NCBI GenBank assembly: GCA_937921305.1
Contig: CAKZSU010000003.1
Span: 116,599 to 180,598, forward strand
Source of the DNA: an uncultured Patescibacteria group bacterium
GTDB taxonomy: Bacteria > Patescibacteriota > Microgenomatia > UBA10105 > UBA927
Direction: 5' to 3'
DNA length: 64,000 nucleotides
In this document: positions 1,063 to 62,752 of the stretch, one piece after another
Layout: every line of letters starts with the position of its first letter
How positions within the stretch are numbered: the stretch's first letter is position 1
Notes under the pieces: model-generated
What the model saw: the letters and a program-made list of their open reading frames with translations, nothing else
Database searches by the model: none
Told to the model about the DNA's origin: nothing
Position numbers and translations under genes: made by a program

Positions 1063-1978
1063 TTAAATCCAGTCATTTTTTATGAATACCCAAAGCATGC
1101 CAACAATAAACACAAGACAAATCGTCATAATCCCAAAGAATGCCATCGGGCTTTCCTGAAACGGCAATTGAACATTCATCCCATAAAAGGAAGCAATAAG
1201 CACGGGAATAGTTAATATCACGGTAAACGAAGTGAACATTTTGATAATCCTATTTAAATTATTTGAAAGAATAATCGTATACGCGTCGCGAAGATTAGTG
1301 ATCGTTCGAATGTTTACTTTTAATAATTCCTCCATTTGTCTCCCCTCAAGAATAATATCTTCAAACGCGTCATCCTCTTCTTCTGTTTTTGTAAATATTT
1401 CACAATCTCGAAGCATTTCATAAATTCTATCCATGCGAAGCAATGAAGTGCTCAAATCGTAGAGCGTGTTCTCAATGTTCACAAATCTAAAAAACATCTG
1501 CATTTGTAATATTTCCTTCTTTCTTTTGATATCGTCGAATCTCTTTGCTTATCGCTGTTAAACAAAAACTATATGCGGCGTTAATTTCTTGAAACAGAGA
1601 AATTAATATCACTTGAGGATCTAATCTTGATTCCCTAGAGATTCGTTGAAGGATAAAATCATAAAACGGAAACGAATCTTTTGTTATGGTGATACATATA
1701 TTAGGAAGAATAATGCACAGCAATGGATATGTCTGAATCTCCGATTTATTTTTGTAAGGATATCGAATAAAAAAATATGGAATATTTTCTTCAAATTCCA
1801 ATCGAGGCACTTCGTAGATATCATACGCGTCAGATAAAAGACTTGAATTCAGATGAAACACTTGAACAAACTGATCAAGCTGAGAAGAAGAGAGCGATTC
1901 ACCGTGTATCCACAACGCGTCATGCTTGATTGTTTGTTGTTCAATAATCTTTTTTGGCGAAGAAAAGTGCTTAAACAT
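1063..1978 (-). CDS. corA: CorA Mg2+/Co2+ transporter, split into two ORFs (1487..1978 N-terminal, 1063..1503 C-terminal) by a frameshift
   Basis: The C-terminal ORF carries the YGMNV (GMN) signature and two C-terminal TM helices. The combined length (163+146 aa) matches CorA. The two reading frames switch inside an A6 run at 1489-1494. Confidence 0.7.
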
Positions 1979-2020: not shown

Positions 2021-3340
2021 TTAAGAAAGCGACCGCTCTAGACGATCATAAATAATTTTCTTATCTCCTTTTCCGTGAAGTTTCTTCATCACTTGTCCAA
2101 AAAGAAACATCAACGCCGGCTTCTTTCCCGCTTTATAATCTTGGACCGCCTTTTCGTGATCCAAAATCACATCGTGTATCGCTTGTTGCATTTCGTCGTC
2201 TGAAACATGAATGACCGTTGTTGCTTGAACAATTTGATGAAGAAGATCAGTTGCTGAGACTGCATGAATATCAACTTTTTTATTGATAATCCAATTTGCA
2301 ATCGTCGTTGGAGCAAGATTATGATTTCTCCCTTCTTTTACAGCATCTTCGAAATACTGAGCAATCTGGCGACTTGCGATCAGCATATCAATAAGTTGAT
2401 CGGATAATTGATATGCTTCTTTGAATCGTCGAGCTTTTTCATCAGGAAGCTCAGGAAGATTCTCTCGCAACGATTCAATATATTGCTCTGTAAAATGAAG
2501 TGGAGGAATATCAGGATCAGGAAAGTATCGATAATCTTCAGCGTGCTCTTTTGATCGTTGAGAAAATGTTTGCCCAGCGTCTTCATTCCATCCTCTTGTT
2601 TCTTGTTTTGGAGTAGCGCCAGATTCAAATATTGATATGTGACGAGCGACTTCATATTCAATCGCTTTTTTCACAAAATTAAATGAATTAATATTTTTGA
2701 CCTCGATTTTATATGGCGGCAACCCTTCATCTTCTGATTGTTTCACTGATATATTCGGCTCCAACCGCATGCTTCCTTTCTCCATGTCCGCGTCGGAAAT
2801 ATCGAGATATCGAATAATTTGATGAAGTTTCTTCAAAAATGATTTCGCGTGCTCTCCACTTCGAATATCGGGTTCCGTGACGATTTCAATCAACGGAACG
2901 CCAGATCTGTTAAAATCAATAAGTGTGACTTCTTTTCCATCAATTGTCGTATGCTGAAGCTTTCCCGTATCTTCTTCTAAATGAACCCGATGAATGCGAA
3001 CATCACCTTCAGGAAGAGATAACACGCCGCCTAAACATAATGGTTGATCATATTGGCTAATTTGATATCCCTTCGAGAGATCGGGATAGAAATAATGCTT
3101 TCGATCGAACTTTGAAACCATGTTTATTTTGCAATTCAATGCTAATCCCAACATAATCGTCCATTCAATCGCTTTCTTGTTCGGCACAGGAAGTCCTCCG
3201 GGCATACCCAAACAAACAGGACAGGTATAGATATTCGGCTTTGGAGCGTGAAACGGATCGTTCTTGCACCCGCAAAACATCTTCGATTGCGTCTTTAATT
3301 CAACATGAATTTCTAAACCAATAATAGGCGTATAGGACAT
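2021..3340 (-). CDS. gatB: Asp-tRNA(Asn)/Glu-tRNA(Gln) amidotransferase subunit B
   Basis: MSYTPIIGLEIHVELKTQSKMFCGC...PVCLGMPGGLP matches the GatB N-terminus. The start is taken at the internal ATG (MSYTP); the listed ORF start is further upstream. Confidence 0.9.
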   Translation of the reverse strand: MSYTPIIGLEIHVELKTQSKMFCGCKNDPFHAPKPNIYTCPVCLGMPGGLPVPNKKAIEWTIMLGLALNCKINMVSKFDRKHYFYPDLSKGYQISQYDQPLCLGGVLSLPEGDVRIHRVHLEEDTGKLQHTTIDGKEVTLIDFNRSGVPLIEIVTEPDIRSGEHAKSFLKKLHQIIRYLDISDADMEKGSMRLEPNISVKQSEDEGLPPYKIEVKNINSFNFVKKAIEYEVARHISIFESGATPKQETRGWNEDAGQTFSQRSKEHAEDYRYFPDPDIPPLHFTEQYIESLRENLPELPDEKARRFKEAYQLSDQLIDMLIASRQIAQYFEDAVKEGRNHNLAPTTIANWIINKKVDIHAVSATDLLHQIVQATTVIHVSDDEMQQAIHDVILDHEKAVQDYKAGKKPALMFLFGQVMKKLHGKGDKKIIYDRLERSLS

Positions 3341-3454
3341 AGATAACAGACAATAACTGACTGCCAATGGATGACTGCAAACAGCCAACGGAAAAAAGCT
3401 AATTACAAACAGTCAATAAATAAATAACGATTGATAATGCGTCTTCTTTAATCT

Positions 3455-4873
3455 TCATATTTTATCTACTTTGTGAATCCAGCGATTCCATGGCGTTTCT
3501 CGCTCATAGAGATACGCCGCTTGCAACACCTTTTCTTCCTCAAAATGATCGCCAATAATCGCCAATCCTAATGACAAATTCGTTTTTGAATCTCTGTAAC
3601 AAGGAATAGAAATAGCGGGATTTCCCGCAAGAGACGACGGTTCATTAAGCATGTCCACAACTTCCCCGAACATAGGATTTCCTTCGCTCGCTCCAACTTT
3701 CAACGCGTATCCAGGAGACGGTGTAGAGATGAGGAGATCGTATGAAGAAAATAATTGATCAAAATTTTTTTTGTATAACATTCGAACCTGTTGAGCTTTT
3801 ATATAATATTTATCGGCGTATCCCTTTGACAGGGTAAATGTTCCGAGCATGATTCGCCGTTTTGCTTCATTGCCAAAGTGTGATCGATCCCTGCCATATC
3901 GAATGCCGTCATATCGAGCCAAGTTGCTTGCCACTTCACTTCGTTGAACGATCGTATATACAGCGACAGCATAATCTGGAGAAAGAACCTTATCTTTTTC
4001 AAGTGTCTGAGAAAGTTTAATTTCATCAACGATAGCGCCATGAGACGCAAAAAGTTTCCCAGCGTTGATCACAACTTCTTTGACTTCTTGAGGCATATGC
4101 AGATGATCCATATATATAATGCCAATTCGCATTCCTTTCACGCCTTTTTGCAAAGACGATCGATAATCTGGAGCTTTTCGATTTGATGATGTCGCATCAT
4201 ATAGATCTTTTCCCGCCATATACCGCAAAAGAATCGCTGCATCTTCGACGGTTTTTGTCATTGGACCAGGGCAATCTAACGAAGATCCCATCGCAATGAC
4301 CCCAGCACGACTCACGCGACCGTAGGTTGGCTTCAATCCAACGCACCCGCACCAACACGCGGGAATTCGTATCGACCCAGCTGTTTCAGATCCAATCGCC
4401 GCGATGCACATATCTGCGGACACAGCGGCGGCGCTTCCTCCAGAAGATCCGCCCGGAGAATAATCGGGATTATCAGGATTTCGCGTTGTTCCAAAATCCG
4501 ATGTCTCCGTGCTTGATCCATGCGCCCACGCGTCTAAATTTGTTTTGCCAATAACAACGCCGCCAGCGTCTTTTATCCGCTTTGTCACTGTTGATTCGTA
4601 TGGCGAATAAAATCCTTCAAGAACGCGAGAAGACGCGGTCGTTGGGAGACCAACAGTTAAAAAGTTGTCTTTTATCGCTATCGGAACGCCAGCAAGATCT
4701 GTTTCAGGATTTCCTTTCTCCGATGAGTGTTCATCGATAGAGAGATACACATTCAACGTCGGATTTTTTTCTCGAATGAATGCATGCACCTCACCATGAA
4801 CCTCCTGAACGCTAACCTCTTTCGATTTGATCAATTCTATTGCTTTTGTAAGAGTTAAACGATGTAATGTCAT
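3455..4873 (-). CDS. gatA: Glu-tRNA(Gln) amidotransferase subunit A (amidase family)
   Basis: Carries the amidase signature GGSSGGSAAAVSADMCIAAIGSETAGSIRIPA. The listed ORF start at 4900 is TTG; the ATG at 4873 (MTLHRLTLTKAIEL) fits the GatA N-terminus and avoids overlap with gatC. Confidence 0.9.
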   Translation of the reverse strand: MTLHRLTLTKAIELIKSKEVSVQEVHGEVHAFIREKNPTLNVYLSIDEHSSEKGNPETDLAGVPIAIKDNFLTVGLPTTASSRVLEGFYSPYESTVTKRIKDAGGVVIGKTNLDAWAHGSSTETSDFGTTRNPDNPDYSPGGSSGGSAAAVSADMCIAAIGSETAGSIRIPACWCGCVGLKPTYGRVSRAGVIAMGSSLDCPGPMTKTVEDAAILLRYMAGKDLYDATSSNRKAPDYRSSLQKGVKGMRIGIIYMDHLHMPQEVKEVVINAGKLFASHGAIVDEIKLSQTLEKDKVLSPDYAVAVYTIVQRSEVASNLARYDGIRYGRDRSHFGNEAKRRIMLGTFTLSKGYADKYYIKAQQVRMLYKKNFDQLFSSYDLLISTPSPGYALKVGASEGNPMFGEVVDMLNEPSSLAGNPAISIPCYRDSKTNLSLGLAIIGDHFEEEKVLQAAYLYERETPWNRWIHKVDKI

Positions 4874-4880
4874 ACTTTCT

Positions 4881-5204
4881 TTATTCGTCTTGATAATCAA
4901 TCACTTGATCCACAACAATATATCCGTTGTGTGTTCGAAGAGCATTTGACAAAGCTTGTTCTTGCGTAAACATTCTTGATTCATCGACAATATCCTCTCT
5001 GGTGACATTTTCCAAATCCACGGCATGATAATCTTCATGAATATCCTTCGTGTCAATACGTTGCAGCTGATCTAAAACGATCATTGTTTTGGTAAACCCT
5101 TCAGCCAACGAAACAGCTTGCGTTTCATCTATAGGAATATTTGCAAGCTTTGCCACCATGTGAACATCTTGAGAACTAAATGTGTAAGTCATAGTTGAAA
5201 GCAT
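4881..5204 (-). CDS. gatC: Glu-tRNA(Gln) amidotransferase subunit C
   Basis: A ~100-aa protein immediately upstream of gatA in the classic gatCAB order, with a GatC-like acidic C-terminus. Confidence 0.75.
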   Translation of the reverse strand: MLSTMTYTFSSQDVHMVAKLANIPIDETQAVSLAEGFTKTMIVLDQLQRIDTKDIHEDYHAVDLENVTREDIVDESRMFTQEQALSNALRTHNGYIVVDQVIDYQDE

Positions 5205-5230: not shown

Positions 5231-5518
5231 ATGAGAGAATATCAAAAAGCGTTTCAAGCAATGCTTGAAGAAAACAAAGAATTATTTAACACCTTCAAAG
5301 CTGTTCACGACGCATACATGATAAATCCGGAAGCAAATAAAGAAAAATTTAATGAAATAGGAGCAACCGTTGTTGACATTGTTAGAGAAACAGAACGAAG
5401 ATTGTGCGCGCAAATGGGGAAAAGCGTCTATAGCAAATTTAGTCATCGCCTGTCTGAAAAGTTCTGGGAACAAGTTCGAACGATGTTTCCAAAAATCGAC
5501 TTTGTCGGCGTAAGATAG
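5231..5518 (+). CDS. hypothetical small protein (96 aa)
   Basis: ORF with an ATG at 5231 (MREYQKAF...); the listed ORF start at 5195 is TTG. No recognisable domain. Confidence 0.4.
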   Translation: MREYQKAFQAMLEENKELFNTFKAVHDAYMINPEANKEKFNEIGATVVDIVRETERRLCAQMGKSVYSKFSHRLSEKFWEQVRTMFPKIDFVGVR

Positions 5519-5520
5519 AA

Positions 5521-6129
5521 TCAAATCAATACTCTTCCCGTGTCGTAGTACCTTAATAAAGACAGGTCATTTCTTCCTGAAAAAAGCAATTCATTTATCA
5601 ACTTTTTCAATCGAATTCTATCAAATATACTGCTCCCAAGAAGAACCACGGGGACATGTTGATCTAATAAATCGGCGATCATGCTGGAAAATCGCTCAAA
5701 TGAGCGATGATTGAGCATCTTTCCAAATCCGAGATGAAAGTCAACATGACAATCCGGATTTATCTTCAAAAGCACGCGTCGTATTCTCTCTTGCAATCGA
5801 TGAGAAAAAAATGGAAACGCTCCTGATTCTTCTTGAACAGGAATTCTCATGGAAACAATATGTATCGATCTAGCATGACGAGCAATGCTTCGAAAGAACA
5901 CCCATTTATATGGATCATTATCATTCTGAAAGAGATGATTCATAACACCATCAAAATCTGTCCATACATCAACCAAAGAAGTGTCTTTTTCAAACGCTGG
6001 ATCGTCAAGAACATCGCTGACAGAACGGATATTCCGAATGGTTGGGCGATATTTCTCTGGAAGAGACGAAAGAGAACGATCAATCTCACAAGAAGGGCGT
6101 AAGAAAAAACAAATCTCCCGAGTATTCAT
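5521..6129 (-). CDS. hypothetical protein, co-oriented and contiguous with gatD (possible third gene of the murT-gatD unit)
   Basis: 203-aa ORF whose ATG at 6129 directly abuts the gatD stop at 6126. I recognise no confident family; motifs such as PDCHVDFHLGFG are present. Confidence 0.5.
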   Translation of the reverse strand: MNTREICFFLRPSCEIDRSLSSLPEKYRPTIRNIRSVSDVLDDPAFEKDTSLVDVWTDFDGVMNHLFQNDNDPYKWVFFRSIARHARSIHIVSMRIPVQEESGAFPFFSHRLQERIRRVLLKINPDCHVDFHLGFGKMLNHRSFERFSSMIADLLDQHVPVVLLGSSIFDRIRLKKLINELLFSGRNDLSLLRYYDTGRVLI

Positions 6130-6881
6130 AATGAACAAGCGTATTCATGCGCCTTCCATTCAAGGTCGTCGGGCAAAGGATCAAGATGAACAGTTTTTTT
6201 GTACTTTATCGAAAGGGCTGTATAAATCAACCAATCCGCAATATGCGGATTTTTTGAAAGAAACGGCCCATGAGCGTAAGTAGCAATACAATGCTTATAC
6301 ATCGCTCCCTCTGTGCCGTCTTCTCCGTTATTTCCAAACCCTTTAATGACACGCGCAAAAGAAGAAACGCCATTCCCTAAATATGTTCTCCCTCCATGAT
6401 TTTCAAATCCAACAATTGTCGGACGAAATGGAAGATGAGAGACTTTGAAACGATCAGATATTTCGGCAACAAGATTTCCAATGCATCGAGGTTTATCTTT
6501 TCCGAAGTGCTTCGTCACCATATCAAAGATTCCCAGTCCCTGTAGTTTCTCTCCGTCTCCAGTCATGTAGTAGTGCCCAAGCAATTGGGGAGATCCGCAC
6601 ACAAACAATCCAACTTTATTCTCATTAAACAACTCTTTTAAGATGCCGCCCTTTCTTCTTCGTAAATCTTCAATAACTAATTTTTGTTGTCTATCTTGCG
6701 CGCCACCTCCAATAACAATATCGCATTGTTGAATATCTTGCTCCGATGTGTCAAATGTGATCGAACAAATTTTTACATCAATACCTCTCCATTCGCATCG
6801 CTTTTTAAGTACCACAATATTTCCTCGATCACCATATGTACTCATTAAATCTGGGTATAACCATCCAACAATCAAGTTCAT
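6126..6881 (-). CDS. gatD: lipid II isoglutaminyl synthase, glutaminase subunit GatD (CobB/CobQ-like GATase)
   Basis: Motifs CGSPQLLG (nucleophile Cys), GFENHGGRTY, GFGNNGEDG and YAHGP closely match S. aureus GatD. A strong RBS (GGGAGG) precedes the ATG at 6881. Confidence 0.85.
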   Translation of the reverse strand: MNLIVGWLYPDLMSTYGDRGNIVVLKKRCEWRGIDVKICSITFDTSEQDIQQCDIVIGGGAQDRQQKLVIEDLRRRKGGILKELFNENKVGLFVCGSPQLLGHYYMTGDGEKLQGLGIFDMVTKHFGKDKPRCIGNLVAEISDRFKVSHLPFRPTIVGFENHGGRTYLGNGVSSFARVIKGFGNNGEDGTEGAMYKHCIATYAHGPFLSKNPHIADWLIYTALSIKYKKTVHLDPLPDDLEWKAHEYACSL

Positions 6882-8185
6882 AAAATTTTCCTCCCGAGTA
6901 AATATTTTCTAACACCAAGCATAGCAGTATATGTTGGTAGCACCCATATATGATCATCAACAGTTGTTCGCGATATCGCATACTTCATTGCTTCATCAGT
7001 TAAATCAAACACATGTATTCGAGAGGAAGAAACACCGGCATATTTCAAACGCACCGCCATGTCGCACCTCCGATCTCCGGAAACAATCACTGGAATATCA
7101 ACATCTGAAACCATCTCCATATCCGCATCCCAAATCCAACTTACATCCCTGCCGTCGGCAATTCTATCGTTTAACAAAAATACAATCGGTCCTTTTTTTG
7201 ACGATCGCAGCACAGTTCGAAGGGATTCATTTAATCCCGTTGGATTTTTTGACAGTAAGATTGTTACTCGCCGACGATGAAATGTGATTTGCTCCATTCT
7301 TCCAAACGCTGGAGAAAACGATGAGAGCGCCTTCGCAATATGTTCTCGAGAAATGCCTAGCGCAAGCCCAGTCAACGATGCAGCAAGCGTGTTGTAGATG
7401 TTATATGTTCCTTCAAGAGGCGATACGACATCCTTTGCCGTTAACGATAACTCTGGATGAATAAACCCACATCGACCGCACGCCCATTTCCCAAGATGAG
7501 AAAAATACACACCGCCAAATGTTAGTTTATTTCCGCATTCTGGACAGTATGACGCATCCATGGCATGCTCCGCCGATGGAAGAAATAACTCTGAATCATC
7601 AATGCCAAAAAATCGCACATCATGATGAATGAGACGCTTTCCGATAAACGCAAGCTGGGGGTCATCGCCGTTAATAATACACACGAATCGTGAATTCATG
7701 TTAACTAAAGCATTCATCCACTTCTCAGCAATGGCGTCAACTTCTCCATACCGATCCAACTGATCTCGAAATAAATTCAAGAGAACAATCATATGAGGCG
7801 ATAGTTCTTCTAATAGCTTAGGAAGCGTCGCTTCATCAACCTCAAAAATACTATATCGAGAACGAAGATTGCCAAACCAATCGCTATCATGTACAAAAGC
7901 GGACACGATTCCATTATCAAGATTCGCTCCGCTTTCATTTCTGCGAACGCGCATCCCAGCATACCGCAATATCGTATCAATCATCTTTGCCGTTGTCGTT
8001 TTGCCATTTGTGCCAGCTACAAGAATAATTTTTCCATCTTGAGAGGCAAATGCTTTAAGTATTGCAGGACGGAAACGAAGGACAAACTCTCCCGGCCATG
8101 TGGCGCCAGAGCCAAGACGAAATACACGAATGAAAAGCATGAATATCTTCGAACAAACAATCACAATTCTATCGAAGACATTCAT
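6878..8185 (-). CDS. murT: lipid II isoglutaminyl synthase, Mur-ligase-like subunit MurT
   Basis: Mur ligase P-loop (VAGTNGKTTT), a Cys4 ribbon (CPECGN...CGRCG) and a C-terminal DUF1727 motif (DVSWIWDAD). Its stop overlaps the gatD start, as in a murT-gatD operon. Confidence 0.85.
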   Translation of the reverse strand: MNVFDRIVIVCSKIFMLFIRVFRLGSGATWPGEFVLRFRPAILKAFASQDGKIILVAGTNGKTTTAKMIDTILRYAGMRVRRNESGANLDNGIVSAFVHDSDWFGNLRSRYSIFEVDEATLPKLLEELSPHMIVLLNLFRDQLDRYGEVDAIAEKWMNALVNMNSRFVCIINGDDPQLAFIGKRLIHHDVRFFGIDDSELFLPSAEHAMDASYCPECGNKLTFGGVYFSHLGKWACGRCGFIHPELSLTAKDVVSPLEGTYNIYNTLAASLTGLALGISREHIAKALSSFSPAFGRMEQITFHRRRVTILLSKNPTGLNESLRTVLRSSKKGPIVFLLNDRIADGRDVSWIWDADMEMVSDVDIPVIVSGDRRCDMAVRLKYAGVSSSRIHVFDLTDEAMKYAISRTTVDDHIWVLPTYTAMLGVRKYLLGRKIL

Positions 8186-8206: not shown

Positions 8207-10348
8207 TTAATTTGGTTGGAGAAAGAGAATCTTGCCGTCTTTGTAATCCACTTTTACAACAGAATGTTGCGCAATATTTCGCTCGATAATTCGAAGCGAC
8301 AATTCATCAAGAATCTGATCTTGGATTACCCGCTTCAATGGGCGAGCACCAAACGCTGGATCATATCCCGTTTCTTGCAGATACTGCTTTACCGATTCTG
8401 TAAACTGAAGATGAATATGTTGCTTTTTCAACCGTTCTTCAACAATCGCCAATTGCAAATCAACAATCCGTCGAAGTTCTTCCGGACGCAAACTCTGGAA
8501 TATCGTGATATGGTCAAGTCTATTGAGAAACTCTGGTCGAAACGCTTTATACACAATATCCAAAACTTTCGCTTCCATCTCTATCTGGTCTTTTTCCGCG
8601 TATGAACGAATGATATCTGATCCAAGATTTGATGTTATGATTAAAATTGTATTTGTGAAATTCACCACGCGACCCCGTCCATCGGTAAGGCGTCCGTCAT
8701 CAAAAATTTGAAGAAACACATTGAATACTTGCGGATGCGCTTTCTCCACTTCGTCAAACAGAATGACGGAGTACGGCTTTCTTCGCACTGCTTCTGTCAA
8801 CTGTCCTCCCTCGTCATATCCCACATACCCAGGAGGAGCTCCGATGAGCCGGGCGACAGAATGAGGTTCCATATATTCACTCATGTCAATCCGAATTAAA
8901 GCCTTCTCATCGTTAAATAAATAATCAGCTAACGCCTTTGCCGTTTCTGTTTTTCCCACACCCGTTGGACCAAGAAAAAGAAATGTTCCGATCGGGCGCT
9001 TTTCGTCGCCAATTCCAGCCCGATTTCTCCGAATTGCCGACGCTACATGCTGAATCGCAGTTTCCTGACCAACAACCCGTTTCGCCAATTCTTCCTCAAG
9101 ATGAACAAGCTTTTCCGCTTCAGATGCAAGCAGTTTCGACACGGGAATCCCCGTCCATCGCGACACGACACGCGCGATATCTTCTTGCGTGACTTCCTCT
9201 CGCAATAATCGTTCTTCTTCCGGTATTTTCGCTAAATCCTGTTCAAGCGTTCGAATCGTTTTTTCCACTTCTGGAATTTTTCCATATTTAATCTCCGCGG
9301 CTTTATCAAGCAACGCCTCTCGCTCCGCTCGTTCCAGTTCCACCCGAAGACTGTCAAGTTCAACTCGTTTTGCCTGAAGTTTCGCGATAATATCTTTCTG
9401 CTCCTGCCACCGTTTCTCCAATATGCTTACCTTTTCTTTCAATCCTTGGATAACTTTCTCCACTTCCTCAATTCGCTCTTTATCTGCTTTCTCTCGTTTT
9501 AACGCCGCTTTTTCAATTTCTCGTTGCGTCAATGTTCGCTTCAATTCATCAAGCTCGAGAGGCATGCTTTCCGTGTCAATTTTTAATCCCGATGCCGCCT
9601 CGTCAACAAGGTCAATCGCCTTGTCTGGAAGAAATCGATCGGGAATATACCGGAGAGAAAGATCAACCGCGGCAAGCAACGCGTCATCGGTAATCCGGAT
9701 GCCATGATGGACTTCGTATTTTTCTTTCAATCCTCGAAGAATCGCAATCGCGTCTTCTCGAGAAGGCTCAGAAAGATAAACTGGCTGAAATCTCCGCTCA
9801 AGCGCTGCGTCTCTTTCAATGTACTGACGATACTCTCGGACAGTCGTCGCGCCGATTGCGTGTAATTCTCCTCGCGCCAACGCAGGTTTTAAGATATTCG
9901 CGGCATCCATCGATCCACTCGTGGCTCCCGCGCCGACAAGCGTATGAAGTTCATCCATGAACACGATATACTTTCCCGAGGATTCTTCTATTTTTTTCAA
10001 TAGTTTTTTTAATCGCTCTTCAAACTCTCCTCGAAATGCCGAACCAGCAACAAGAGACGCGATATCCAATGCAAGAATTTCCTTATGTTTTAAAGTTGAC
10101 GGAACATCGCCAGAAACAATCCGTTGAGCAAGTCCCTCAACCACAGCGGTTTTTCCAACGCCTGGATCTCCCAAAAGGACTGGATTGTTTTTTGTTCGTC
10201 TCGCCAAAATCTGCATGACGCGTCGAATTTCTTCGTTTCTTCCAATCACTGGGTCAAGTTTGCCAATTCGAGCTTTTTCTGTAAGATTTACTGTGTGCGC
10301 TTCAAGTGGATCTCGATTGTCTTGTGGAGGTTGATAATTGATATCCAT
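8207..10348 (-). CDS. clpB: ClpB-type AAA+ disaggregase lacking the N-terminal substrate domain
   Basis: Two AAA modules (GDPGVGKTA and GPTGVGKTE Walker A motifs) with a long coiled-coil M-domain between them. At 713 aa it equals ClpB minus the ~145-aa N-domain; the protein begins just upstream of D1. Confidence 0.85.
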
Positions 10349-10400
10349 GTAGCTCAGTATAAGAAAATTAGCACTTAAATGTCAAGATTGCTAATCTATC

Positions 10401-51213: not shown

Positions 51214-52539
51214 TTATGGCAAAAATGACTTTAACAGATTCATGATCTTTCCCGCAAGACCCTTATTGGATCCTTTTTGTCCTCCTTTTCCAAACATTGA
51301 AAAGAAAGATCGTGACTCTTCATTTCGTCTTGCCTGCGCGCCGTAAAGAAGCAACCCAACACTCGTCGCATATGCCGGCGTCATGATTTCATCAATAAGT
51401 CCACGAACACGCATTGGAATACCCACACGAACAGGCATCGCAAGATTTCTTTTCACACAATCAAGAATCCCTACAGTTTCTGCCCCGCCACCAGTTAATA
51501 CCACACCAGACGGTGTCAAACCGCCAAACCCGCTTCGCTTGATTTCCAACGCAACCATGGTAAAAATTTCATTTAATCTCGGTTTGATAATCCCCTCAAC
51601 CAATGTTTTTCTCGATAATTTCTTAATATCTTCCGCAAGATTAAGGTTTGACACATCAAATTCGTCATTGCTCTGCTGCTTCTTCTCATCTTTTCCCGAG
51701 GATGATTGATCTTGCCGATATGGAATCGGAGGAAGCGCTGGCGTTTTTGGCAGTTGACCAAGCTTGAGCTTAATTTTTTCCGCACTTTCCAAAGAGATCC
51801 GAAGCCCAGCGGCAAGATCTTTTGAAATATGAACAGCTCCAATTGGAATCACCGAAGAATACGACAACGCGCCTTCCACAAAAATCGCTACATCTGTGGT
51901 CTCCCCGCCAACATCCACGACAATCGCACCGAGATCTTTCTCCGTGTCTGATAACACCGCCGTTGCAGACGCCAACCCGCTAAACACAAGACCCGCAACA
52001 TCCACGCCCATTTCTTGAACACACTTATGCAAGTTCCGTATTGCGGTAACACCTCCCGTAACAAGATGAGCATCAACTTCAAGACGAATTCCTGTCATCC
52101 CCACAGGATCAACAATGTCTTCTTGCTGATCCACCTTATATCCGCGAGGCAATACATGAAGAATTTCTCGAGACGAAGGAATAGAGACCGCTTTTGCCGC
52201 TTCAATCACACGATTGACATCATGTTCAGTAATTTCTTTATCAGGTTCGGATACCGCCACAACGCCATGCGAATTAATCGACGCAATATGATTTCCGCTA
52301 ATAGAGACATACGCTTCTGGCGCAGAAACGCCAGCCATCCGTTCTGCCGCTTCAAGAGATTGCGCGATTGCTGAGGATGCCTCATCGATATTCACCACTT
52401 GCCCTTTGCGAATACCCCTGCTTGTCACCGTGGAAACACCGACAATATTTGCGTATCCATCTTCTGTTAATGAAGCGATAAGCGTGACGATTTTCGATGT
52501 GCCGATATCAATACTTGAAATAATGTTGTCTCTTGCCAT
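51214..52539 (-). CDS. ftsA: cell division protein FtsA (actin-like ATPase)
   Basis: DIGTSKI N-terminus, actin-fold phosphate motifs ([10 protein letters not shown]) and a position upstream of ftsZ. Confidence 0.9.
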
Positions 52540-52560
52540 ATGTTTAGTATAGTTCCCTTT

Positions 52561-53247
52561 TTATGGAATGATAACTGGGTTTACAAACCGCAGATCAATC
52601 ACTTGAGGAACTTGTCCCTTCATTCTAAATCCCTTCAGAAGAGTATGTAAAGTATCAGATGTTTTCTTTCCGTCTCCGTCTGAGCGAACGAATACAGTCG
52701 TATCACGCATGCTAATCTCAAGAAACCCATCACTATTCAACACGATTGCTCGAATATCCTCAATAGACCGAAACGATTGAATAATTGAGATGCTCATATC
52801 AACTCCTTTCCCTGACACGGTTTTTCCCGCTTTCATTTCATCAACCGGTAGGCGAAGCGTCGGAAGAGACACAGACGCAGAACTTTCAAACAACATCCGC
52901 TCCTCATCCACCGCGAGCGTTCTTCCAGCATATTCTAAGAAGGCAATTGGTTCCCGAAGAGTGAATTGAATAATCAATCGATGAGGATACCTTTTTATAA
53001 AACGAACATTTTTTACCCTCGGATATTTTTGAACTATAAATGTTTTCATTTTTTGTTCAGGAAAGAAAAGAAGATTCATCGGTATTTGCGATGGATCAAT
53101 CTCCACAGTAACATGCGATGGTTCAGTGTGAATCTCGCGGATCTGAAAAAGAGACAATACACCAAACACTCCGATAAGGAAAAAGCAAACAAATATTCCA
53201 ATTCGAACAACAGGATACGAAAGCAATCGAATGATCCGCCGTTTCAT
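52561..53247 (-). CDS. ftsQ: cell division protein FtsQ/DivIB (POTRA domain)
   Basis: Single TM followed by a POTRA-like beta-rich domain, between murG and ftsA. The ATG at 53247 abuts the murG stop. Confidence 0.6.
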   Translation of the reverse strand: MKRRIIRLLSYPVVRIGIFVCFFLIGVFGVLSLFQIREIHTEPSHVTVEIDPSQIPMNLLFFPEQKMKTFIVQKYPRVKNVRFIKRYPHRLIIQFTLREPIAFLEYAGRTLAVDEERMLFESSASVSLPTLRLPVDEMKAGKTVSGKGVDMSISIIQSFRSIEDIRAIVLNSDGFLEISMRDTTVFVRSDGDGKKTSDTLHTLLKGFRMKGQVPQVIDLRFVNPVIIP

Positions 53248-54296
53248 AGATAAGAGAGAATCACATCGCATAACCGCTTTGTTCCATCAATAGGCACAGA
53301 CAGGTATTCTCGTTTTGGCAGAGATTCCAACGCATTAATAGATTTAATGAATGTTTTATCAGACGCATCTTTTTGATGTAATAAAACTGTGGGCGCATAG
53401 AAAGCAAGCCATTCAGCATTTACTTTTTGCTCGTGTTGCAACGGCAATGGAATAAGGAGAGACGGCGTTTTGGTCACCGCAAGCTCATACACGCTATTTG
53501 CACCAGCTCGACTCACAACAAACTTTGCGTTATGAAGCAACCACGACGCGTCGGGCGGATCGATGTACGGCGCGATATAGTATCGGTTCTTAAGTTCAAT
53601 CGGGAGCATATCTCGAATCATAGTCGCTTTTTCCCAAGAAACCAACCCGGTCTGATGCGCGATAACATATCGCGTCAACAATACTCGAGCCACTCGAAAG
53701 AACAGATCATTGACAAACACCGCGCCAGTCGTGCCTCCTGTCACATAAAGTATCGGACGAGACGATAAAAAAGGAATTGAAGGTTTATCCGGCGGATGAA
53801 GGATTTCGTATCGAAGCGGAAATCCCGTATAAATATATCGTCCTTTTGCCATGTCTTCATAACTTACACACACCGCGCTCGCGAGATATCGAAGCGCCGC
53901 GTTCCCCATCCCAAAGCTATGCGTCTGCTCATGAATCACCAAAGGAATACCGCGAATAATCGCGGCTATTCCCACAGCGGTTCCCACATACCCGCCAAAC
54001 GACACCACGACGCGAGGACGAAGTGAGGATAAAAATTGAGCAATCGATATGACAGAACGAATAAATGCTATTCCCTCTCGAGGACGGGGAATATCTATTA
54101 TATGCGTATAATTACAAAGAGAACACATAATCTGTTCTTCTATTGAGTTAGAAGTTTGTTCAGCAGAAGCAAACACTCTCCGTCTGCCGATAAACACTAG
54201 CGATATCGTCTTCTCTCGCTGTTTCAAATCTTTCGCAACAGCATAAGCTGGAGAAAGATGACCGCCAGAAATCACAAGAACACGACGCGTATTCAT
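53244..54296 (-). CDS. murG: undecaprenyldiphospho-muramoylpentapeptide beta-N-acetylglucosaminyltransferase
   Basis: GT28 two-domain layout with an N-terminal VLVISGGHLSPAYAVA G-loop, between ftsW and ftsQ. Confidence 0.75.
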   Translation of the reverse strand: MNTRRVLVISGGHLSPAYAVAKDLKQREKTISLVFIGRRRVFASAEQTSNSIEEQIMCSLCNYTHIIDIPRPREGIAFIRSVISIAQFLSSLRPRVVVSFGGYVGTAVGIAAIIRGIPLVIHEQTHSFGMGNAALRYLASAVCVSYEDMAKGRYIYTGFPLRYEILHPPDKPSIPFLSSRPILYVTGGTTGAVFVNDLFFRVARVLLTRYVIAHQTGLVSWEKATMIRDMLPIELKNRYYIAPYIDPPDASWLLHNAKFVVSRAGANSVYELAVTKTPSLLIPLPLQHEQKVNAEWLAFYAPTVLLHQKDASDKTFIKSINALESLPKREYLSVPIDGTKRLCDVILSYL

Positions 54297-55426
54297 TTTG
54301 TATACTTGCTTATATTTAACACGATACCAAACGCGGAAAGCAAAACAACAAGACTAGACCCGCCGTAGGATATAAACGGCAACGGCACACCGGTAAGCGG
54401 AAATAACGCGATAATCGCGCCAATGTTGATCGCCGATTGCAATCCAAACCACGCGATCACGCCAACAATAATCAGTCTTGCAAACAGATCAGGAGATCGT
54501 CGAGCAATACGAAATAATCGCCAAAGAACAAAAAGATACCCAAGAAGAACTATTGACGATCCAATAAGCCCAAATTCCTCCGCGACAATGGCAAATATCG
54601 CGTCAGTATTTGCTTCTGGAAGGTAATCATGTTTTTGCCGAGACTTTCCCGCGCCAACGCCAAACACTCCTCCTGAACCAATGCCAAGAAGTGCTTGACG
54701 AATCTGGTACGACGCGCCGTATGGATCTCGCTCTGGATTAAGGAATGTCGTAATTCGTTGCAACCGATACGGCGCGGCAAGAGCAAGGACAAGCAAAATT
54801 ATCACAATCACAGGAACAAGTCCCAAAAACTGCTTGATCGGCGCTCCGGAGATAAAGTACATAGTTAATGAAATAATCAACAAAATAATACTTGTCCCCA
54901 TGTCAGGTTGGAGCAGGACAAGTCCCACCGTGGCGCCCAAAAAAAATAGAAACGCGGAGAACCGTTCTTGTTCTTTTTTGCATAACCACGCGGCAAGATA
55001 GAGGATGACGGCAAGTTTTGCGAATTCAGACGGTTGAAAACTTGTAAATCCCAAATTGATCCATCGACTCGCTCCCATCACCCGAACCCCAATCACAGGC
55101 AGAAATACCGCGATCAATAAACACAAAGTCACGACAATAAAAGGAACAGACGCGACATACCACGCGGTATAGGTAATGCGAGAAGTAATGAATAACGCAA
55201 CCAATCCAACACAAAACCACATCAGTTGTTCTTTAATAAAGAAAAATGGGGAACCAAAATCGCGTAACGCAATCGCGGTGGATGCGTTATAAACCATAAT
55301 CAGCCCAAACATGCTTAACGCTAACACCAACAGAAACAACACCCCATCACCCCGATGCTCTGAAGCGTTTGTTTTTTTTGTTGCAAGATTGATCCAGCGT
55401 GATACTGTAGCGTGTACGCGTTTCAT
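54293..55426 (-). CDS. ftsW: SEDS family lipid II flippase/polymerase FtsW
   Basis: Ten TM helices and a SEDS C-terminal motif, next to mraY and murG. The ATG at 55426 (MKRVHATVSRW) avoids overlap with mraY. Confidence 0.75.
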   Translation of the reverse strand: MKRVHATVSRWINLATKKTNASEHRGDGVLFLLVLALSMFGLIMVYNASTAIALRDFGSPFFFIKEQLMWFCVGLVALFITSRITYTAWYVASVPFIVVTLCLLIAVFLPVIGVRVMGASRWINLGFTSFQPSEFAKLAVILYLAAWLCKKEQERFSAFLFFLGATVGLVLLQPDMGTSIILLIISLTMYFISGAPIKQFLGLVPVIVIILLVLALAAPYRLQRITTFLNPERDPYGASYQIRQALLGIGSGGVFGVGAGKSRQKHDYLPEANTDAIFAIVAEEFGLIGSSIVLLGYLFVLWRLFRIARRSPDLFARLIIVGVIAWFGLQSAINIGAIIALFPLTGVPLPFISYGGSSLVVLLSAFGIVLNISKYTK

Positions 55427-55436
55427 GAAAGATGTG

Positions 55437-56483
55437 TTACGGGCGCGAAGTCGTGAGCAACGCGGCCCATAACCCAATAACGGCCAACACAATCGCGAGA
55501 ATCCAAAACCGCATTACAATTTTTGTTTCCGGCCATCCTCGATATTGCAACCAAAGATGCAACGGCGCGGCAGGGATTAATTTTCTTTTGAAGATCATTT
55601 TGCTTAACAACTGGATAAGAGAGAAAAACACTTCAACAACAAAAATTCCGCCAATAATCACTAACACAGGCATTTTTCCTAACAAGATGCCCACCACGGC
55701 AAATGTCGCGCCAAAGGACAACGCGCCGGTGTCTCCCAAAAAAATTCTTGCCGGGTGAACATTAAAATAAAGAAACGCGAGGAGCGATCCAATCCATAAC
55801 GCGATAAACACAGACAACGGCGCATCAAGAATAGAACTTGATATCGTCCAAAACGCGCCAAGAGCGATCATTAAGACGCCAGATGCCAATCCATCTAATC
55901 CATCAGTAATATTAAACGCGTTCGCAAACGCGATGATGGTAAACATGGAAAACGGGAAAAATAACCACCCAAGATCAAGAACGCCGATAAACGGAATATG
56001 CAAAATTGTTATGCCAAGATCAAACACAAGCCAATAACTGACGATCGCGGCAAGAACCAACTCAAGAAATAATTTGTGCCTGAGACGCAATCCAAAAAAT
56101 CGCTCTCGTTTCCACGCAAATGTTTTTTTCGCATCATCAATTAATCCCAAAATGCCAAACGATATGAATGTGAAAAGAATAATCTTTACCTCTGTCACCA
56201 GAGAATACACCGATGTCACAGGAAGCCAAAAATATTCCATAAGGAAAAGAAGAATTGGAAGCATGACTGAAACAAACACGATAATCAAGAGCCCGCCGCC
56301 AACAGGTGTTCCCGCTTTGTGCGAATGAAAGGAATCAAAGATAGGTGTTCGCTTTTCAAAGATATCAAGAGTTTTTTGTCGCTGCCTCTGAAACTTCCAT
56401 TGATAAAGCAACTTAATAAATGGAATATAAAGAGCGCTCGTGATAATGTATGAAAACAGCAAAACGCCGAGAAGAAATACCAT
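55437..56483 (-). CDS. mraY: phospho-N-acetylmuramoyl-pentapeptide transferase
   Basis: NAFNITDGLDGLASG and a C-terminal HH motif region with a multi-TM layout. Confidence 0.9.
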   Translation of the reverse strand: MVFLLGVLLFSYIITSALYIPFIKLLYQWKFQRQRQKTLDIFEKRTPIFDSFHSHKAGTPVGGGLLIIVFVSVMLPILLFLMEYFWLPVTSVYSLVTEVKIILFTFISFGILGLIDDAKKTFAWKRERFFGLRLRHKLFLELVLAAIVSYWLVFDLGITILHIPFIGVLDLGWLFFPFSMFTIIAFANAFNITDGLDGLASGVLMIALGAFWTISSSILDAPLSVFIALWIGSLLAFLYFNVHPARIFLGDTGALSFGATFAVVGILLGKMPVLVIIGGIFVVEVFFSLIQLLSKMIFKRKLIPAAPLHLWLQYRGWPETKIVMRFWILAIVLAVIGLWAALLTTSRP

Positions 56484-56489
56484 AGAAAT

Positions 56490-56864
56490 TTAAGAAAATA
56501 TGATCCCCGCGACGCGAGGACCAAAAATAATCATGGCGACAAGAGTGGCGCCAAACGCGATAAAGAGCATCATGCCAGCAGCGACATCTTTTGCAATTTT
56601 CGCTTCTTTTTTCCACTCTTGCGTCACAAGATCCGTAATCGCCTCAAGACTTGTGTTTACCAACTCGCCAGTAATTCCAAGAACAATCGTAAACACAATG
56701 ATCGTCCACTCTACTGGCGTAATTTGGAAGACATACCCGAGGGCAATCGCAAATAAAGAGAGCGCCACATGCACACGAAAATTTGGTTGCGTGGTAAACG
56801 CCCAAAAAAGACCATCAAACGCGTGCTTAAAAGATATCGTGTGTTGGCGAATCAACTTTTTCAT
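56490..56864 (-). CDS. dgkA: DgkA-family lipid kinase (diacylglycerol/undecaprenol kinase)
   Basis: 124 aa, three TM helices and the family's conserved acidic motif (GELVNTSLEA). Confidence 0.7.
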   Translation of the reverse strand: MKKLIRQHTISFKHAFDGLFWAFTTQPNFRVHVALSLFAIALGYVFQITPVEWTIIVFTIVLGITGELVNTSLEAITDLVTQEWKKEAKIAKDVAAGMMLFIAFGATLVAMIIFGPRVAGIIFS

Positions 56865-56881
56865 ATCATGAGTATAGCATG

Positions 56882-57871
56882 TTAATATCCCTTCTTTATC
56901 CTTCGGATGGCTTCAATGCATCGAGGGATACAATAAAAAGGAGATACCGGATAATCCTGTGCGTGAAGATATCGACTCTCCTCTCCTCCGAACCCTTGCT
57001 TAAATAGCGTAATTCCTTTCCATGGATGAGAGACAGATTCGCTTGGCGCGACACCCCAGAAATTATAGAGTTTCATACCTCGACGCTTCGATTCCTGAAT
57101 CGCGATCCACTGAATAAGATGCGCGCCAGACGGCGACCCTCGCAACGAGGCGCCGTAATGATAGATTGCCTGTCCGCCAAAAAATAATATGATCGCCGAA
57201 GCGATAACTCGTCCTTCGTATTCCGCGTAATACAAAACCGCGTGATCGTTCCGAGAAAATACATCAAATTCTTCTTGAATACCTTTATGCGGAACGAATC
57301 CTTGTCGTTTTGCTGTTTCTTTATAGAGAGCAAAAAACTGCGAAAGATCGTCGGACCTATAGACGCGGACACCCATCCGTTCTGCTTTTTTTATTTCATA
57401 TCTCGTGGTTTTTCTCATCTGCGAAAAGATCGCATCAAGCGGAGAATCCAACGGCAATACCCAGCAGACTTCCGCATCCATCGCATGAATGGCCGCAGGC
57501 TTATATCCTGCCGAAGCAAACGATTGTTGAAAAGATTCAGGAATTAACGGATTGACACGAAAAAATAACACATGCTCCTGTTTTGCGCGGATCTTCATAA
57601 ACTCCGTAAATGAAGAAATTGTCTCTTCCGTATATTCTTTAAGAACAGGTCCATGACGAATATGGAGAAACGATCCGCGTCTCGCAAGAACTTTGACAAC
57701 CTGAAATATACCAACACACTCTTTTCTTTTCCACATGCCATATCGCTGTACAGAATCTCCTGTCTTTTCCAAAACCTCTCCCCACTCCCACGACTGAAAT
57801 AATGCGTGAGAAGCAAAACGAAACAACACATCGTCCCACTGTTTGTTATGAGTAATTAGTTCAATGTTCAT
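56882..57871 (-). CDS. FemAB-family aminoacyl-tRNA-dependent peptidoglycan interpeptide-bridge transferase
   Basis: ~330 aa with a double GNAT-like fold and FemAB/FemX-like segments (ALFQSWEWGEVLE..., GQAIYHYGASL...). Confidence 0.7.
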   Translation of the reverse strand: MNIELITHNKQWDDVLFRFASHALFQSWEWGEVLEKTGDSVQRYGMWKRKECVGIFQVVKVLARRGSFLHIRHGPVLKEYTEETISSFTEFMKIRAKQEHVLFFRVNPLIPESFQQSFASAGYKPAAIHAMDAEVCWVLPLDSPLDAIFSQMRKTTRYEIKKAERMGVRVYRSDDLSQFFALYKETAKRQGFVPHKGIQEEFDVFSRNDHAVLYYAEYEGRVIASAIILFFGGQAIYHYGASLRGSPSGAHLIQWIAIQESKRRGMKLYNFWGVAPSESVSHPWKGITLFKQGFGGEESRYLHAQDYPVSPFYCIPRCIEAIRRIKKGY

Positions 57872-58205
57872 GCGTCAATCCGCGAAGAATAATCGAAAAT
57901 ATCGTCATTAGAATTGATCCGGCAAGCGCTGTCCCGATTCCATCCACAGAAAATCCCGGGGTAATCGCACTTGCAAGCAGCAAGATCAGCGCATTGATCA
58001 CAAAAAGAAACACTCCCAATGTGATCATTGTCACTGGAAGGGTGAAAAGAACAAGAATCGGCTTTACCAATACATTAAGGAATCCAATGACGCCGCTTGC
58101 AAGCACTGCTTGCAAAAAACTATCAACATGAATCTGTGGCAGAAGCATCGCGACAAGATACAATGAAAGCGAATGAATCCCCCATGTCAAAACAAGCGAT
58201 TTCAT
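57861..58205 (-). CDS. DUF360 / phage-holin-4-2 family small membrane protein
   Basis: 114 aa, four TM helices and an LP...TLG.FLFVINALIL pattern. Confidence 0.5.
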   Translation of the reverse strand: MKSLVLTWGIHSLSLYLVAMLLPQIHVDSFLQAVLASGVIGFLNVLVKPILVLFTLPVTMITLGVFLFVINALILLLASAITPGFSVDGIGTALAGSILMTIFSIILRGLTHEH

Positions 58206-59398
58206 ACGATTGATTCTATCACGCGCATAACTTTCTTTGCTTCCGATTGCGTAACGCGCATTGGAAGATTCACAATTTTTTTACAGTATGCTTCTGCATT
58301 CGGGCAAGATCCAAGAACATACCCAGCAGCGGAAAGATCAACGCCTTTTGGATCTATTGGCGTTACATACCATCGGCCAAGCAAGACGCCGCGAGCTTTC
58401 GCTTTTCGGATAAGGTCATCCGGATTATCAACAAATATCGGATACCGAAGATATATCGCATCGCTGTAATCTGATCTTTTTCTATATATATTTGCGGCCA
58501 TTCTTCGCATGGCTTGAAATCGCGGAAGTTTTTTGATCTGATGAAGGGCGAGCGCTGTCAACGCGTGTGGATACTTCTGAGGAAATATACCCGGATTGCC
58601 ACCTTCCTTTTCCTCGCGATACACAGGAAATGAAAGCCACCCAAGTTTTTGAAACGCCACAAGTAGAACCTTTCCTATCCCTATCGTGTACCATGGCAAA
58701 ATCAACGCAAAGGCGATTGGATGAAAAAGTTGTTGCGCAATCCATCTATATGATGGATATGCCAATGTTTTGTATTGCTTTTCTAATCGTTGAAACGCTT
58801 CGGAATCTCGAATAATCGCCGCTCCGCCAAACACGCTAGAAATCACTTTGTCTCTTCCAAAGCTAAAAAATGCTGCGTCTCCCCACGATCCAAGCATTTT
58901 CCCTCTGTACGATACGCCAAGCGCGTGAGCGCAATCTTCGATCACGAGAATGCTATGCTTTCTTGCAAATGCCACTATTTCGTCTATCTTTGCCGGAACT
59001 CCGAATGTGTGCTGAACGATAATCGCTTTTGTTTTCTCGGAGATCTTCTTTCTAATTGTTTCAACCGTCAAATTTAGCGTGTCATCAATATCGGCGTACA
59101 CCGGTGTCGCGCCTGTCCACAAAACGCTATTCGGCACCGCGACACAGGTAAACGCTTGAACAATCACTTCATCGCCCTTCTTAACACCAAACGCCCGCAA
59201 TATTTCATACTCCGCAGATCTGCCACTGTTATAAAACAGTATATGATCTGTGCTATATTGACGAGTAAACCATGTTTTTAGCGTTTGCTCCGCGTCTCCT
59301 GTCCTCCACCGCCATGGCGTCAACATCATGCGGATCGCTAAGACAATATCGTCAATTTCTGTGTTTGGAGAAAGAGATGGAGAGATTGGATGAAACAT
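58202..59398 (-). CDS. DegT/DnrJ/EryC1/StrS family PLP-dependent nucleotide-sugar aminotransferase
   Basis: The N-terminus ISPSLSPNTEIDDIVLAI aligns with the family's IPLSRP...E..AV start. The lysine-region motif FSFGRDKVISS is present. Confidence 0.8.
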   Translation of the reverse strand: MFHPISPSLSPNTEIDDIVLAIRMMLTPWRWRTGDAEQTLKTWFTRQYSTDHILFYNSGRSAEYEILRAFGVKKGDEVIVQAFTCVAVPNSVLWTGATPVYADIDDTLNLTVETIRKKISEKTKAIIVQHTFGVPAKIDEIVAFARKHSILVIEDCAHALGVSYRGKMLGSWGDAAFFSFGRDKVISSVFGGAAIIRDSEAFQRLEKQYKTLAYPSYRWIAQQLFHPIAFALILPWYTIGIGKVLLVAFQKLGWLSFPVYREEKEGGNPGIFPQKYPHALTALALHQIKKLPRFQAMRRMAANIYRKRSDYSDAIYLRYPIFVDNPDDLIRKAKARGVLLGRWYVTPIDPKGVDLSAAGYVLGSCPNAEAYCKKIVNLPMRVTQSEAKKVMRVIESIV

Positions 59399-60116
59399 AT
59401 TTTTTTATAAATCGCTCTATGACATCGACAAATTCTTTTGGTTTCTTATATGGAACATTGTGACCAACATCTTCGATCATTTCAAACATGCTTCCTGGAA
59501 TCGTCTGCTTCATTTTTACGCCAATGCGAACAGGAACAATGCTATCTTTCTCGCCCCAAATTAACAAACATGGGACATGAAGATGTTTCATGTCGTCAAC
59601 AAGAGGTTCGCTTACCACCTGCTTAAATGTTTCTCTCATTGTTCCTTCAGCACGATAATATTCTCGAGCTCCGACGAGATAATAATACCACTTTCGAATC
59701 ATTTCGGTTAAAAAAGATAATGTGGGTAATGAAAGAACTCGTTTTCCAATTTTTGCAAGCACAATAAAGAACAATAATTTTGTTCGAGAAACTGGCGTAT
59801 ATCCAGGCGTTCCAGACAATACAAGTACTCGAATATTTTTTTTATACAATGTTGCATATCGAAGACCGACTCGTCCACCAAATGAATGACCAATCAATAT
59901 TGGATCATTAATGTGTTCTTTTTCTAGCACCATTCTGACATATTTCGCGTAATCATTAAGTGTGTAGGGCCGTTCAGGGCTTTTGCATTCGCCAAACCCC
60001 GGAAGGTCGAGTGAAACCGCCCGATAGCCTCGCCGCTCTAATTCTTCTTGCAAGGGTATAAATATCTTTTTCGACAGTCCCCATCCATGCAAGATCACAA
60101 ACACAGGATTTTTCAT
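59352..60116 (-). CDS. alpha/beta hydrolase fold protein
   Basis: Nucleophile elbow LIGHSFGGRVG and an HGWG oxyanion region. Confidence 0.75.
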   Translation of the reverse strand: MKNPVFVILHGWGLSKKIFIPLQEELERRGYRAVSLDLPGFGECKSPERPYTLNDYAKYVRMVLEKEHINDPILIGHSFGGRVGLRYATLYKKNIRVLVLSGTPGYTPVSRTKLLFFIVLAKIGKRVLSLPTLSFLTEMIRKWYYYLVGAREYYRAEGTMRETFKQVVSEPLVDDMKHLHVPCLLIWGEKDSIVPVRIGVKMKQTIPGSMFEMIEDVGHNVPYKKPKEFVDVIERFIKKYVSSNLSISFSKHRN

Positions 60117-62751: not shown

Positions 62752-62752
62752 A

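Follow-up and report, generated by a model that had tools for sequence, protein, structure and literature searches.

Organisation of the murT-gatD-X locus

The window analysed here is a stretch of 64,000 nucleotides (nt) from an uncultured Patescibacteria group bacterium (assembly GCA_937921305.1, contig CAKZSU010000003.1, positions 116,599 to 180,598), and the genes of interest are three co-directional open reading frames (ORFs) on its minus strand: murT (8185..6878, 435 amino acids (aa)), the ligase subunit of a predicted lipid II isoglutaminyl synthase, gatD (6881..6126, 251 aa), its glutaminase subunit, and an unannotated gene directly after gatD, here called gene X (6129..5521, 202 aa). 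The source contig has a length of 565 kb. A preliminary description had placed the three ORFs correctly, and both the murT/gatD and the gatD/X junction consist of an ATGA stop/start overlap. The third protein had been given as 203 aa, and while the ORF is real, this length was off by one when counted from the ATG. There are two options for the start of X, the ATG at 6129 (202 aa) and a TTG at 6138 (205 aa), of which the ATG is the one chosen by the gene callers in three independent assemblies. A Shine-Dalgarno-like GGGAGG is located 8 nt ahead of the gatD startcodon, and no Shine-Dalgarno-like sequence was found before the start of X, which is probably translationally coupled to gatD via the ATGA overlap. 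Since these genomes are compact, X would also be transcribed together with gatD.

MurT and GatD represent a two-subunit lipid II isoglutaminyl synthase

The products of murT and gatD are predicted to form a true lipid II isoglutaminyl synthase of two subunits, and the earlier identification of both proteins was borne out by profile matches, relatives in the PDB and conserved catalytic residues. MurT matched PF08353 (MurT_C, 3e-32), PF08245 (Mur ligase middle domain, 4.7e-15) and NCBIfam NF045635 (3e-75), with the S. pneumoniae 6fqb_A (2e-60) and S. aureus 6gs2_B (7e-57) chains as closest solved structures, and GatD matched PF07685 (GATase_3, 2.6e-30) and NCBIfam NF045636 (5e-51), with 9sq9_C (1.8e-45) and S. 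aureus 6gs2_A (6.8e-40) as closest PDB chains. The NCBIfam score of MurT (253.7 bits) is under the equivalog cut-off of 800 because of phylogenetic distance, with the next family, pMurC, reaching only 91.9 bits; the GatD score (173.5 bits) is likewise under its cut-off of 400. MurT carries a GTNGKT P-loop for ATP binding at residue 58 and a Cys4 zinc ribbon formed by CPEC214 and CGRC236. The S. aureus residues that matter are C94 and H189 of GatD, the Mg-binding E108 of MurT, and D349 of MurT, which completes the inter-subunit catalytic triad (PMC6113224). All catalytic residues checked were present in the window pair: MurT E115 and D347 correspond to S. aureus E108 and D349 (alignment to 7q8e/6gs2), and GatD C95 and H204 to S. 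aureus C94 and H189 (alignment to 5n9m/6gs2).

The window also contains a cell-wall and division cluster on the minus strand (51214-63730), with murB, murA, glmU, mraY, ftsW, murG and ftsA among its genes, and as murA, murB, glmU, mraY, murG and others are present, the lipid II substrate would be made by the organism itself. Amidation of the stem-peptide D-Glu, claimed in the preliminary description, is well supported as a prediction by the catalytic residues together with these lipid II genes. MurT would activate the alpha-carboxylate of D-isoglutamate (D-iGlu) with ATP, and GatD would deliver the ammonia from glutamine. In this reaction ATP and glutamine are consumed and ADP, phosphate and glutamate released, and no step requires a phosphatase. 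The two subunits are enough in vitro (PMC3266927, PMC6113224).

Gene X occupies a variable slot after gatD

The preliminary description had suggested that the third gene encodes an unrecognised accessory component of the amidation pathway, and had proposed its conservation downstream of gatD in related genomes as a check. A scan of the GTDB species representatives based on GatD gave 514 relatives, of which the best 80 loci (GatD 51-68% identical) were taken; those with informative titles are mostly Gottesman-, Levy- or Woesebacteria, or generic Patescibacteria. When these 80 loci were searched with a hidden Markov model (HMM) of the X family, no X ORF was found within approximately 5 kb of gatD (0/80). 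Instead, in 53 of the 80 loci the next gene, at most 150 nt after gatD, is either gatC (37 loci) or the convergent small ORF orf95 (16 loci), and gatC or gatA is reached within the flank in all of the loci with enough downstream sequence (75/75), giving a murT-gatD...gatCAB gene order. Where there is a gap after gatD, the genes found in it are a GAF-ANTAR regulator with a glutamine synthetase (eight loci, one of which lacks the regulator ORF, see below), an asparaginase-like gene (L051), a canonical HAD hydrolase of approximately 201 aa (L023, 5825-6430, PF00702 1.5e-8) and a 201-aa ORF of unknown family (L018, 5880-6485). The latter two were considered as diverged X orthologs, and this was rejected as hhalign of the X profile (run with both proteins and with the family profile of the L023 protein), HMM and BLAST searches detected no relation with X; they are also unrelated to each other. 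As unrelated genes are found in the same place, the position after gatD is a variable slot in the conserved murT-gatD...gatCAB array.

Linkage of X to gatD is confined to X copies sharing 35-100% identity with that of the window, and these come from three assemblies of the same organism, P0002, P0003, P0004 (L010), P0005 and P0006, the last of which has a fragment upstream of X that translates to GatD. X is beside gatD in six closely related loci only. Where the gatD-X linkage persists, the whole region is syntenic anyway, and the L010 locus is fully so, with the order clpB-murT-gatD-X-orf-gatCAB-corA-dnaE. It is clear from this comparison that X is one occupant of a variable slot after gatD, present in a few closely related lineages. 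The proposed conservation thus did not extend beyond a narrow set of lineages, and the accessory role in the pathway is not supported: X is missing near gatD from all 80 related loci, and the distant members of its family adjoin other genes.

Distribution and genomic context of the X family

X is of unknown family, as had been stated, with no match to any Pfam, NCBIfam or PHROG family. At the codon level, comparison with two relatives gave ratios of non-synonymous to synonymous substitution rates (dN/dS) of 0.19-0.30, which shows that X is a real gene under purifying selection. The corresponding values are 0.10 for gatD, 0.10 for gatC and 0.05-0.09 for orf95, hence constraint on X is two to three times weaker than on its neighbours and the gene is comparatively fast-evolving.

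The X family is real yet rare. A word-index search with X retrieved only one identical protein and two relatives (76% and 70% identity), and a word-index search with the family alignment gave seven proteins only, whilst HMMER, run in full against 1.84 billion cluster representatives, identified 34 relatives at E < 1e-3, all of approximately 185-250 aa. Patterns derived from the gatD-linked copies had no matches in the GTDB species representatives or the JGI metagenomes, and a third X alignment used as pattern recovered a single lineage, linked to the uracil-DNA glycosylase gene ung. One family member with 46% identity was present in a metagenome-assembled genome labelled 'Patescibacteria group bacterium' (GCA_026415875.1).

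The distant relatives of X (22-33% identity) are found in other genomic contexts. In six contigs (L007, L008, L096-L099), X precedes the gene of a family-1 uracil-DNA glycosylase (ung, with the GQDPYH motif) by 14 nt, and the surrounding synteny with a holA-like gene, ackA and lgt is kept; as the Ung proteins are 87% identical, these six contigs count as one observation. The uppS gene is beside X in L013 (5631-7103, co-directional with a 34-nt gap) and in L009 (2374-3851, convergent), and these represent two very distant lineages, with the X proteins 31% and the UppS proteins 28% identical. Two further X lineages are without a meaningful neighbour, and toxin-antitoxin genes are also among the neighbours of distant members. 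A search of the rest of the window gave neither an X paralog nor a motif of uppS or ung. The X family thus has no consistent partner, and the adjacency to uppS is the sole recurring signal outside the group to which the window belongs, a weak lead to lipid-carrier phosphatase chemistry.

Gene X encodes a putative HAD-like protein

X is a soluble protein with an isoelectric point (pI) of 8.5 and no hydrophobic segment. In an alignment of 32 family members, D58, P106, K137, S166 and T197 are invariant, and D60, G61, V62, R95, C127, G134, G165, S167 and D170 are near-invariant, with D60, G61 and V62 conserved in at least 90% of the alignment. An AlphaFold model made with the family alignment (pLDDT 87.7, pTM 0.85) is of the alpha/beta type with five parallel-type strands, and the modelled fold appears Rossmann-like. 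When the conserved residues are placed on this model, candidates for all four HAD motifs can be proposed: the sequence VDVWT-D58-F-D60-G-V62 after the strand at 53-58 (motif I), S93 after the strand at 86-92 (motif II), K137 past the strand at 128-132 and ahead of strand 4 (motif III), and G165-S166-S-I-F-D170 after strand 4, with the same spacing as GDxxxD (motif IV). The best sub-threshold Pfam match in the X family was PGP_phosphatase (PF09419, E 0.0027), which is nearly full length and scores 17.7 bits versus a cut-off of 20.4, followed by HAD_SAK_2 (PF18143, E 0.01) and the motif IV end of PF00702 (E 0.06). These sub-threshold HAD hits came from three members of the family, each in register with the motifs, and the support for a HAD assignment is thus consistent but weak. 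We put the odds that X is a HAD-type phosphatase at roughly even; as such it would be a capless, Mg-dependent aspartyl-phosphatase. X represents a small unannotated family for which there is no existing model, and which probably belongs to a known superfamily.

Interpretation of the murT-gatD-X arrangement

Taken together, the arrangement is best described as an ordinary operon with a clade-restricted insert. As a system, murT-gatD is already known, here in a phylum that has received little study, and we consider it likely, with a probability of approximately 0.6, that this pair is genuine and that X is a clade-restricted occupant of the slot after gatD, a HAD-like phosphatase rather than a conserved part of the pathway. 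The absence of X from the related loci, the variability of the slot and the different partners elsewhere together make it most likely that X is restricted to its clade and acts outside lipid II amidation.

Several observations weigh against this combined reading. With regard to the slot, the scan of the 80 loci spans approximately 5 kb on each side of gatD, and X could be present elsewhere in those genomes. The neighbour-joining tree of GatD is too weak to separate a single insertion of X from an ancestral X followed by loss, as bootstrap support is 70% where the window groups with L004 and L010 and under 40% for every other relevant grouping. The tight ATGA overlap and the retention of the gatD-X linkage down to 35% X identity also fit with a clade-specific functional link. 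With regard to the HAD assignment, the first acidic residue of HAD motif IV is replaced by an invariant serine (S166) in X, and no Pfam, NCBIfam or PHROG model reached threshold for X or for any of the 32 family members. The X family profile found no HAD protein among the PDB sequences, giving chance-level matches only (e.g. Sua5), and hhalign of X with one HAD-IA subfamily profile returned a probability of 3%. Foldseek, which had been proposed as a check on the third protein, was run with the X model against the PDB and the viral BFVD, and gave nothing significant.

In the first alternative, which we regard as unlikely, X is a Rossmann-like protein from outside the HAD superfamily with a binding or regulatory role, and its DxDGV/GSSxxD pattern is only convergent.

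The second alternative, the main rival and one that we think is quite unlikely, gives the position of X after gatD a functional meaning, with X as an accessory factor, specific to the clade, in the metabolism of cell-envelope precursors. X could be a phosphatase of the cytoplasm with a polyprenyl-linked substrate, be it undecaprenyl pyrophosphate (C55-PP) or a lipid II-related species, or it could act on MurT/GatD itself. This alternative draws on the ATGA overlap with gatD, on the linkage being held from 100% to 35% X identity, on the presence of uppS beside two very distant X members, and on the best sub-threshold Pfam match being a lipid-phosphate phosphatase family, PGP_phosphatase. The absence of a cap could be added to this, as the architecture of C0-type (capless) HADs is suited to large or membrane-bound substrates. 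However, X is missing from 80/80 of the related murT-gatD loci, it is soluble and without a membrane anchor, and other family members are beside ung or unrelated genes, with only six independent lineage contexts in all. Furthermore, the MurT/GatD reaction needs no phosphatase, its two subunits sufficing in vitro (PMC3266927, PMC6113224).

Thirdly, X could be a nucleic-acid or nucleotide phosphatase (a PNKP-like 3'-phosphatase or a nucleotidase) with a housekeeping or repair function, for which the place after gatD would be incidental. The lineage of six contigs with X 14 nt upstream of ung is consistent with such a role, as are the sub-threshold match to the RNA-repair HAD domain HAD_SAK_2 and the weak Foldseek matches, which include phage PNKP phosphatase domains. 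Every one of these matches is below significance though, the linkage to ung represents a single lineage (Ung 87% identical), and there is no repair gene near X in the window; we regard this alternative as very unlikely.

Finally, it is highly improbable that the X proteins form a candidate phyla radiation (CPR)-specific family of soluble, capless HAD-type phosphatases in lipid-carrier metabolism, active at the cytoplasmic face on, for example, de novo C55-PP or a lipid II-related intermediate, although this would explain why X is beside uppS in two lineages and beside murT-gatD in that of the window, and X would then supply the 'missing' cytoplasmic dephosphorylation of de novo C55-PP which is discussed in PMC4641660.

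The reading of X as a clade-restricted slot occupant is mainly corrective in its meaning: three genes packed closely into an 'operon' in a compact CPR genome do not equal a three-component pathway, and MurT/GatD stays a two-protein system here.

The conserved array and neighbouring genes

The wider comparison of the 80 loci has as a modest by-product that the Microgenomates-type array, (clpB-)murT-gatD-(convergent orf95)-gatC-gatA-gatB, is deeply conserved. In the window, the tRNA-dependent amidotransferase genes are all on the minus strand, with gatC at 5204..4881, gatA at 4900..3455 and gatB at 3388..2021 (Pfam GatC, Amidase and GatB_N/GatB_Yqey, respectively). A glutamine synthetase gene is located between murT-gatD and gatCAB in L025, L026, L031, L033, L034, L037, L043 and L088, and a GAF-ANTAR regulator is found ahead of glnA in seven of these eight loci, with the contig of L043 stopping inside glnA and having no regulator ORF. 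The linkage of murT-gatD with gatCAB, and with glnA in some species, suggests a conserved cluster of glutamine-dependent amidotransferases. Many of the GTDB records (among L020-L093) are titled 'uncultured Gammaproteobacteria bacterium', with a GatD that shares 53-68% identity with that of the window; these have the murT-gatD-gatCAB order of the Gottesmanbacteria, some on contigs of approximately 1 Mb, and it seems that the titles are placeholders wrongly given to CPR genomes.

The small ORF orf95 (5231..5518, plus strand, 95 aa) runs convergently to X, with 2 nt between the stop codons. It is called at 85-110 aa in all loci with gatD-linked X, and in 21 of the 80 GTDB loci a homolog separates gatD from gatC. 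The protein is basic (pI 8.8) and, with its dN/dS of 0.05-0.09, strongly conserved, and it has no match to any known family.

Upstream of murT is clpB (10348..8207, minus strand, 713 aa; AAA_2 9e-68, ClpB_D2-small 7e-25), with 21 nt between the end of clpB and murT, and the two genes also adjoin in L010, L015, L023 and L026. The strongest promoter-like site of the region (10385..10356, 11/12 matches) is upstream of clpB and is the sole strong site, the terminator and promoter scan being otherwise at chance level; an Rfam search of the window gave four tRNAs and no other element. The ClpB protein begins just before its first AAA domain and the usual N-terminal domain is seemingly missing, and ClpB ORFs of similar length (approximately 2.1 kb) are ahead of murT in L015, L020 and L026. 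The corA gene (1063-1978, minus strand) looks split into two ORFs that overlap, 1487..1978 (163 aa) and 1063..1503 (146 aa). In L010 corA is one gene of 304 aa, and in L003, another assembly of the same organism, it has 253 aa; the split reflects either a pseudogene with a frameshift or an error of the assembly.

Within the cell-wall and division cluster, a FemAB-family gene (56882-57871, minus strand) suggests that the stem peptide may be branched in the Gram-positive style. The same cluster holds an alpha/beta hydrolase and a DegT-type aminotransferase gene, both located between glmU and the FemAB gene.

Comparison with known systems

The closest known counterparts of X would be the capless HAD proteins of the C0/subfamily IIIA-like type, such as PGP phosphatase/YqeG (PF09419), the PNKP phosphatase domain and the class B/C acid phosphatases. 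X resembles these in the Rossmann-like core of its model, the DxDGV sequence ending strand 1, the serine ending strand 2, the invariant lysine before strand 4, the G-x-x3-D arrangement after strand 4, and the lack of a large cap insert. The canonical HAD-IA hydrolase of L023 (PF00702/PF13419) is like X in having approximately 200 aa and in occupying the same slot directly after gatD, but differs in its C1 cap and its DxGGV motif I, and has no detectable homology with X by HMM, BLAST or hhalign.

For MurT/GatD, the comparison is with the S. aureus and S. pneumoniae enzymes (6gs2, 6h5e, 6fqb; PMC6113224, PMC6085368). As in these species, the window has two adjacent, overlapping genes, of which MurT has the Mur-ligase middle domain with GTNGKT, the Cys4 zinc ribbon, MurT_C and the aspartate equivalent to D349, and GatD has the GATase_3 domain with the cysteine and histidine equivalent to C94 and H189. 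Unlike the S. aureus and S. pneumoniae systems, the window pair comes from an uncultured host of the Patescibacteria/Microgenomates type, has NCBIfam scores well under the cut-offs, and is embedded in a clpB...gatCAB array with an extra gene downstream.

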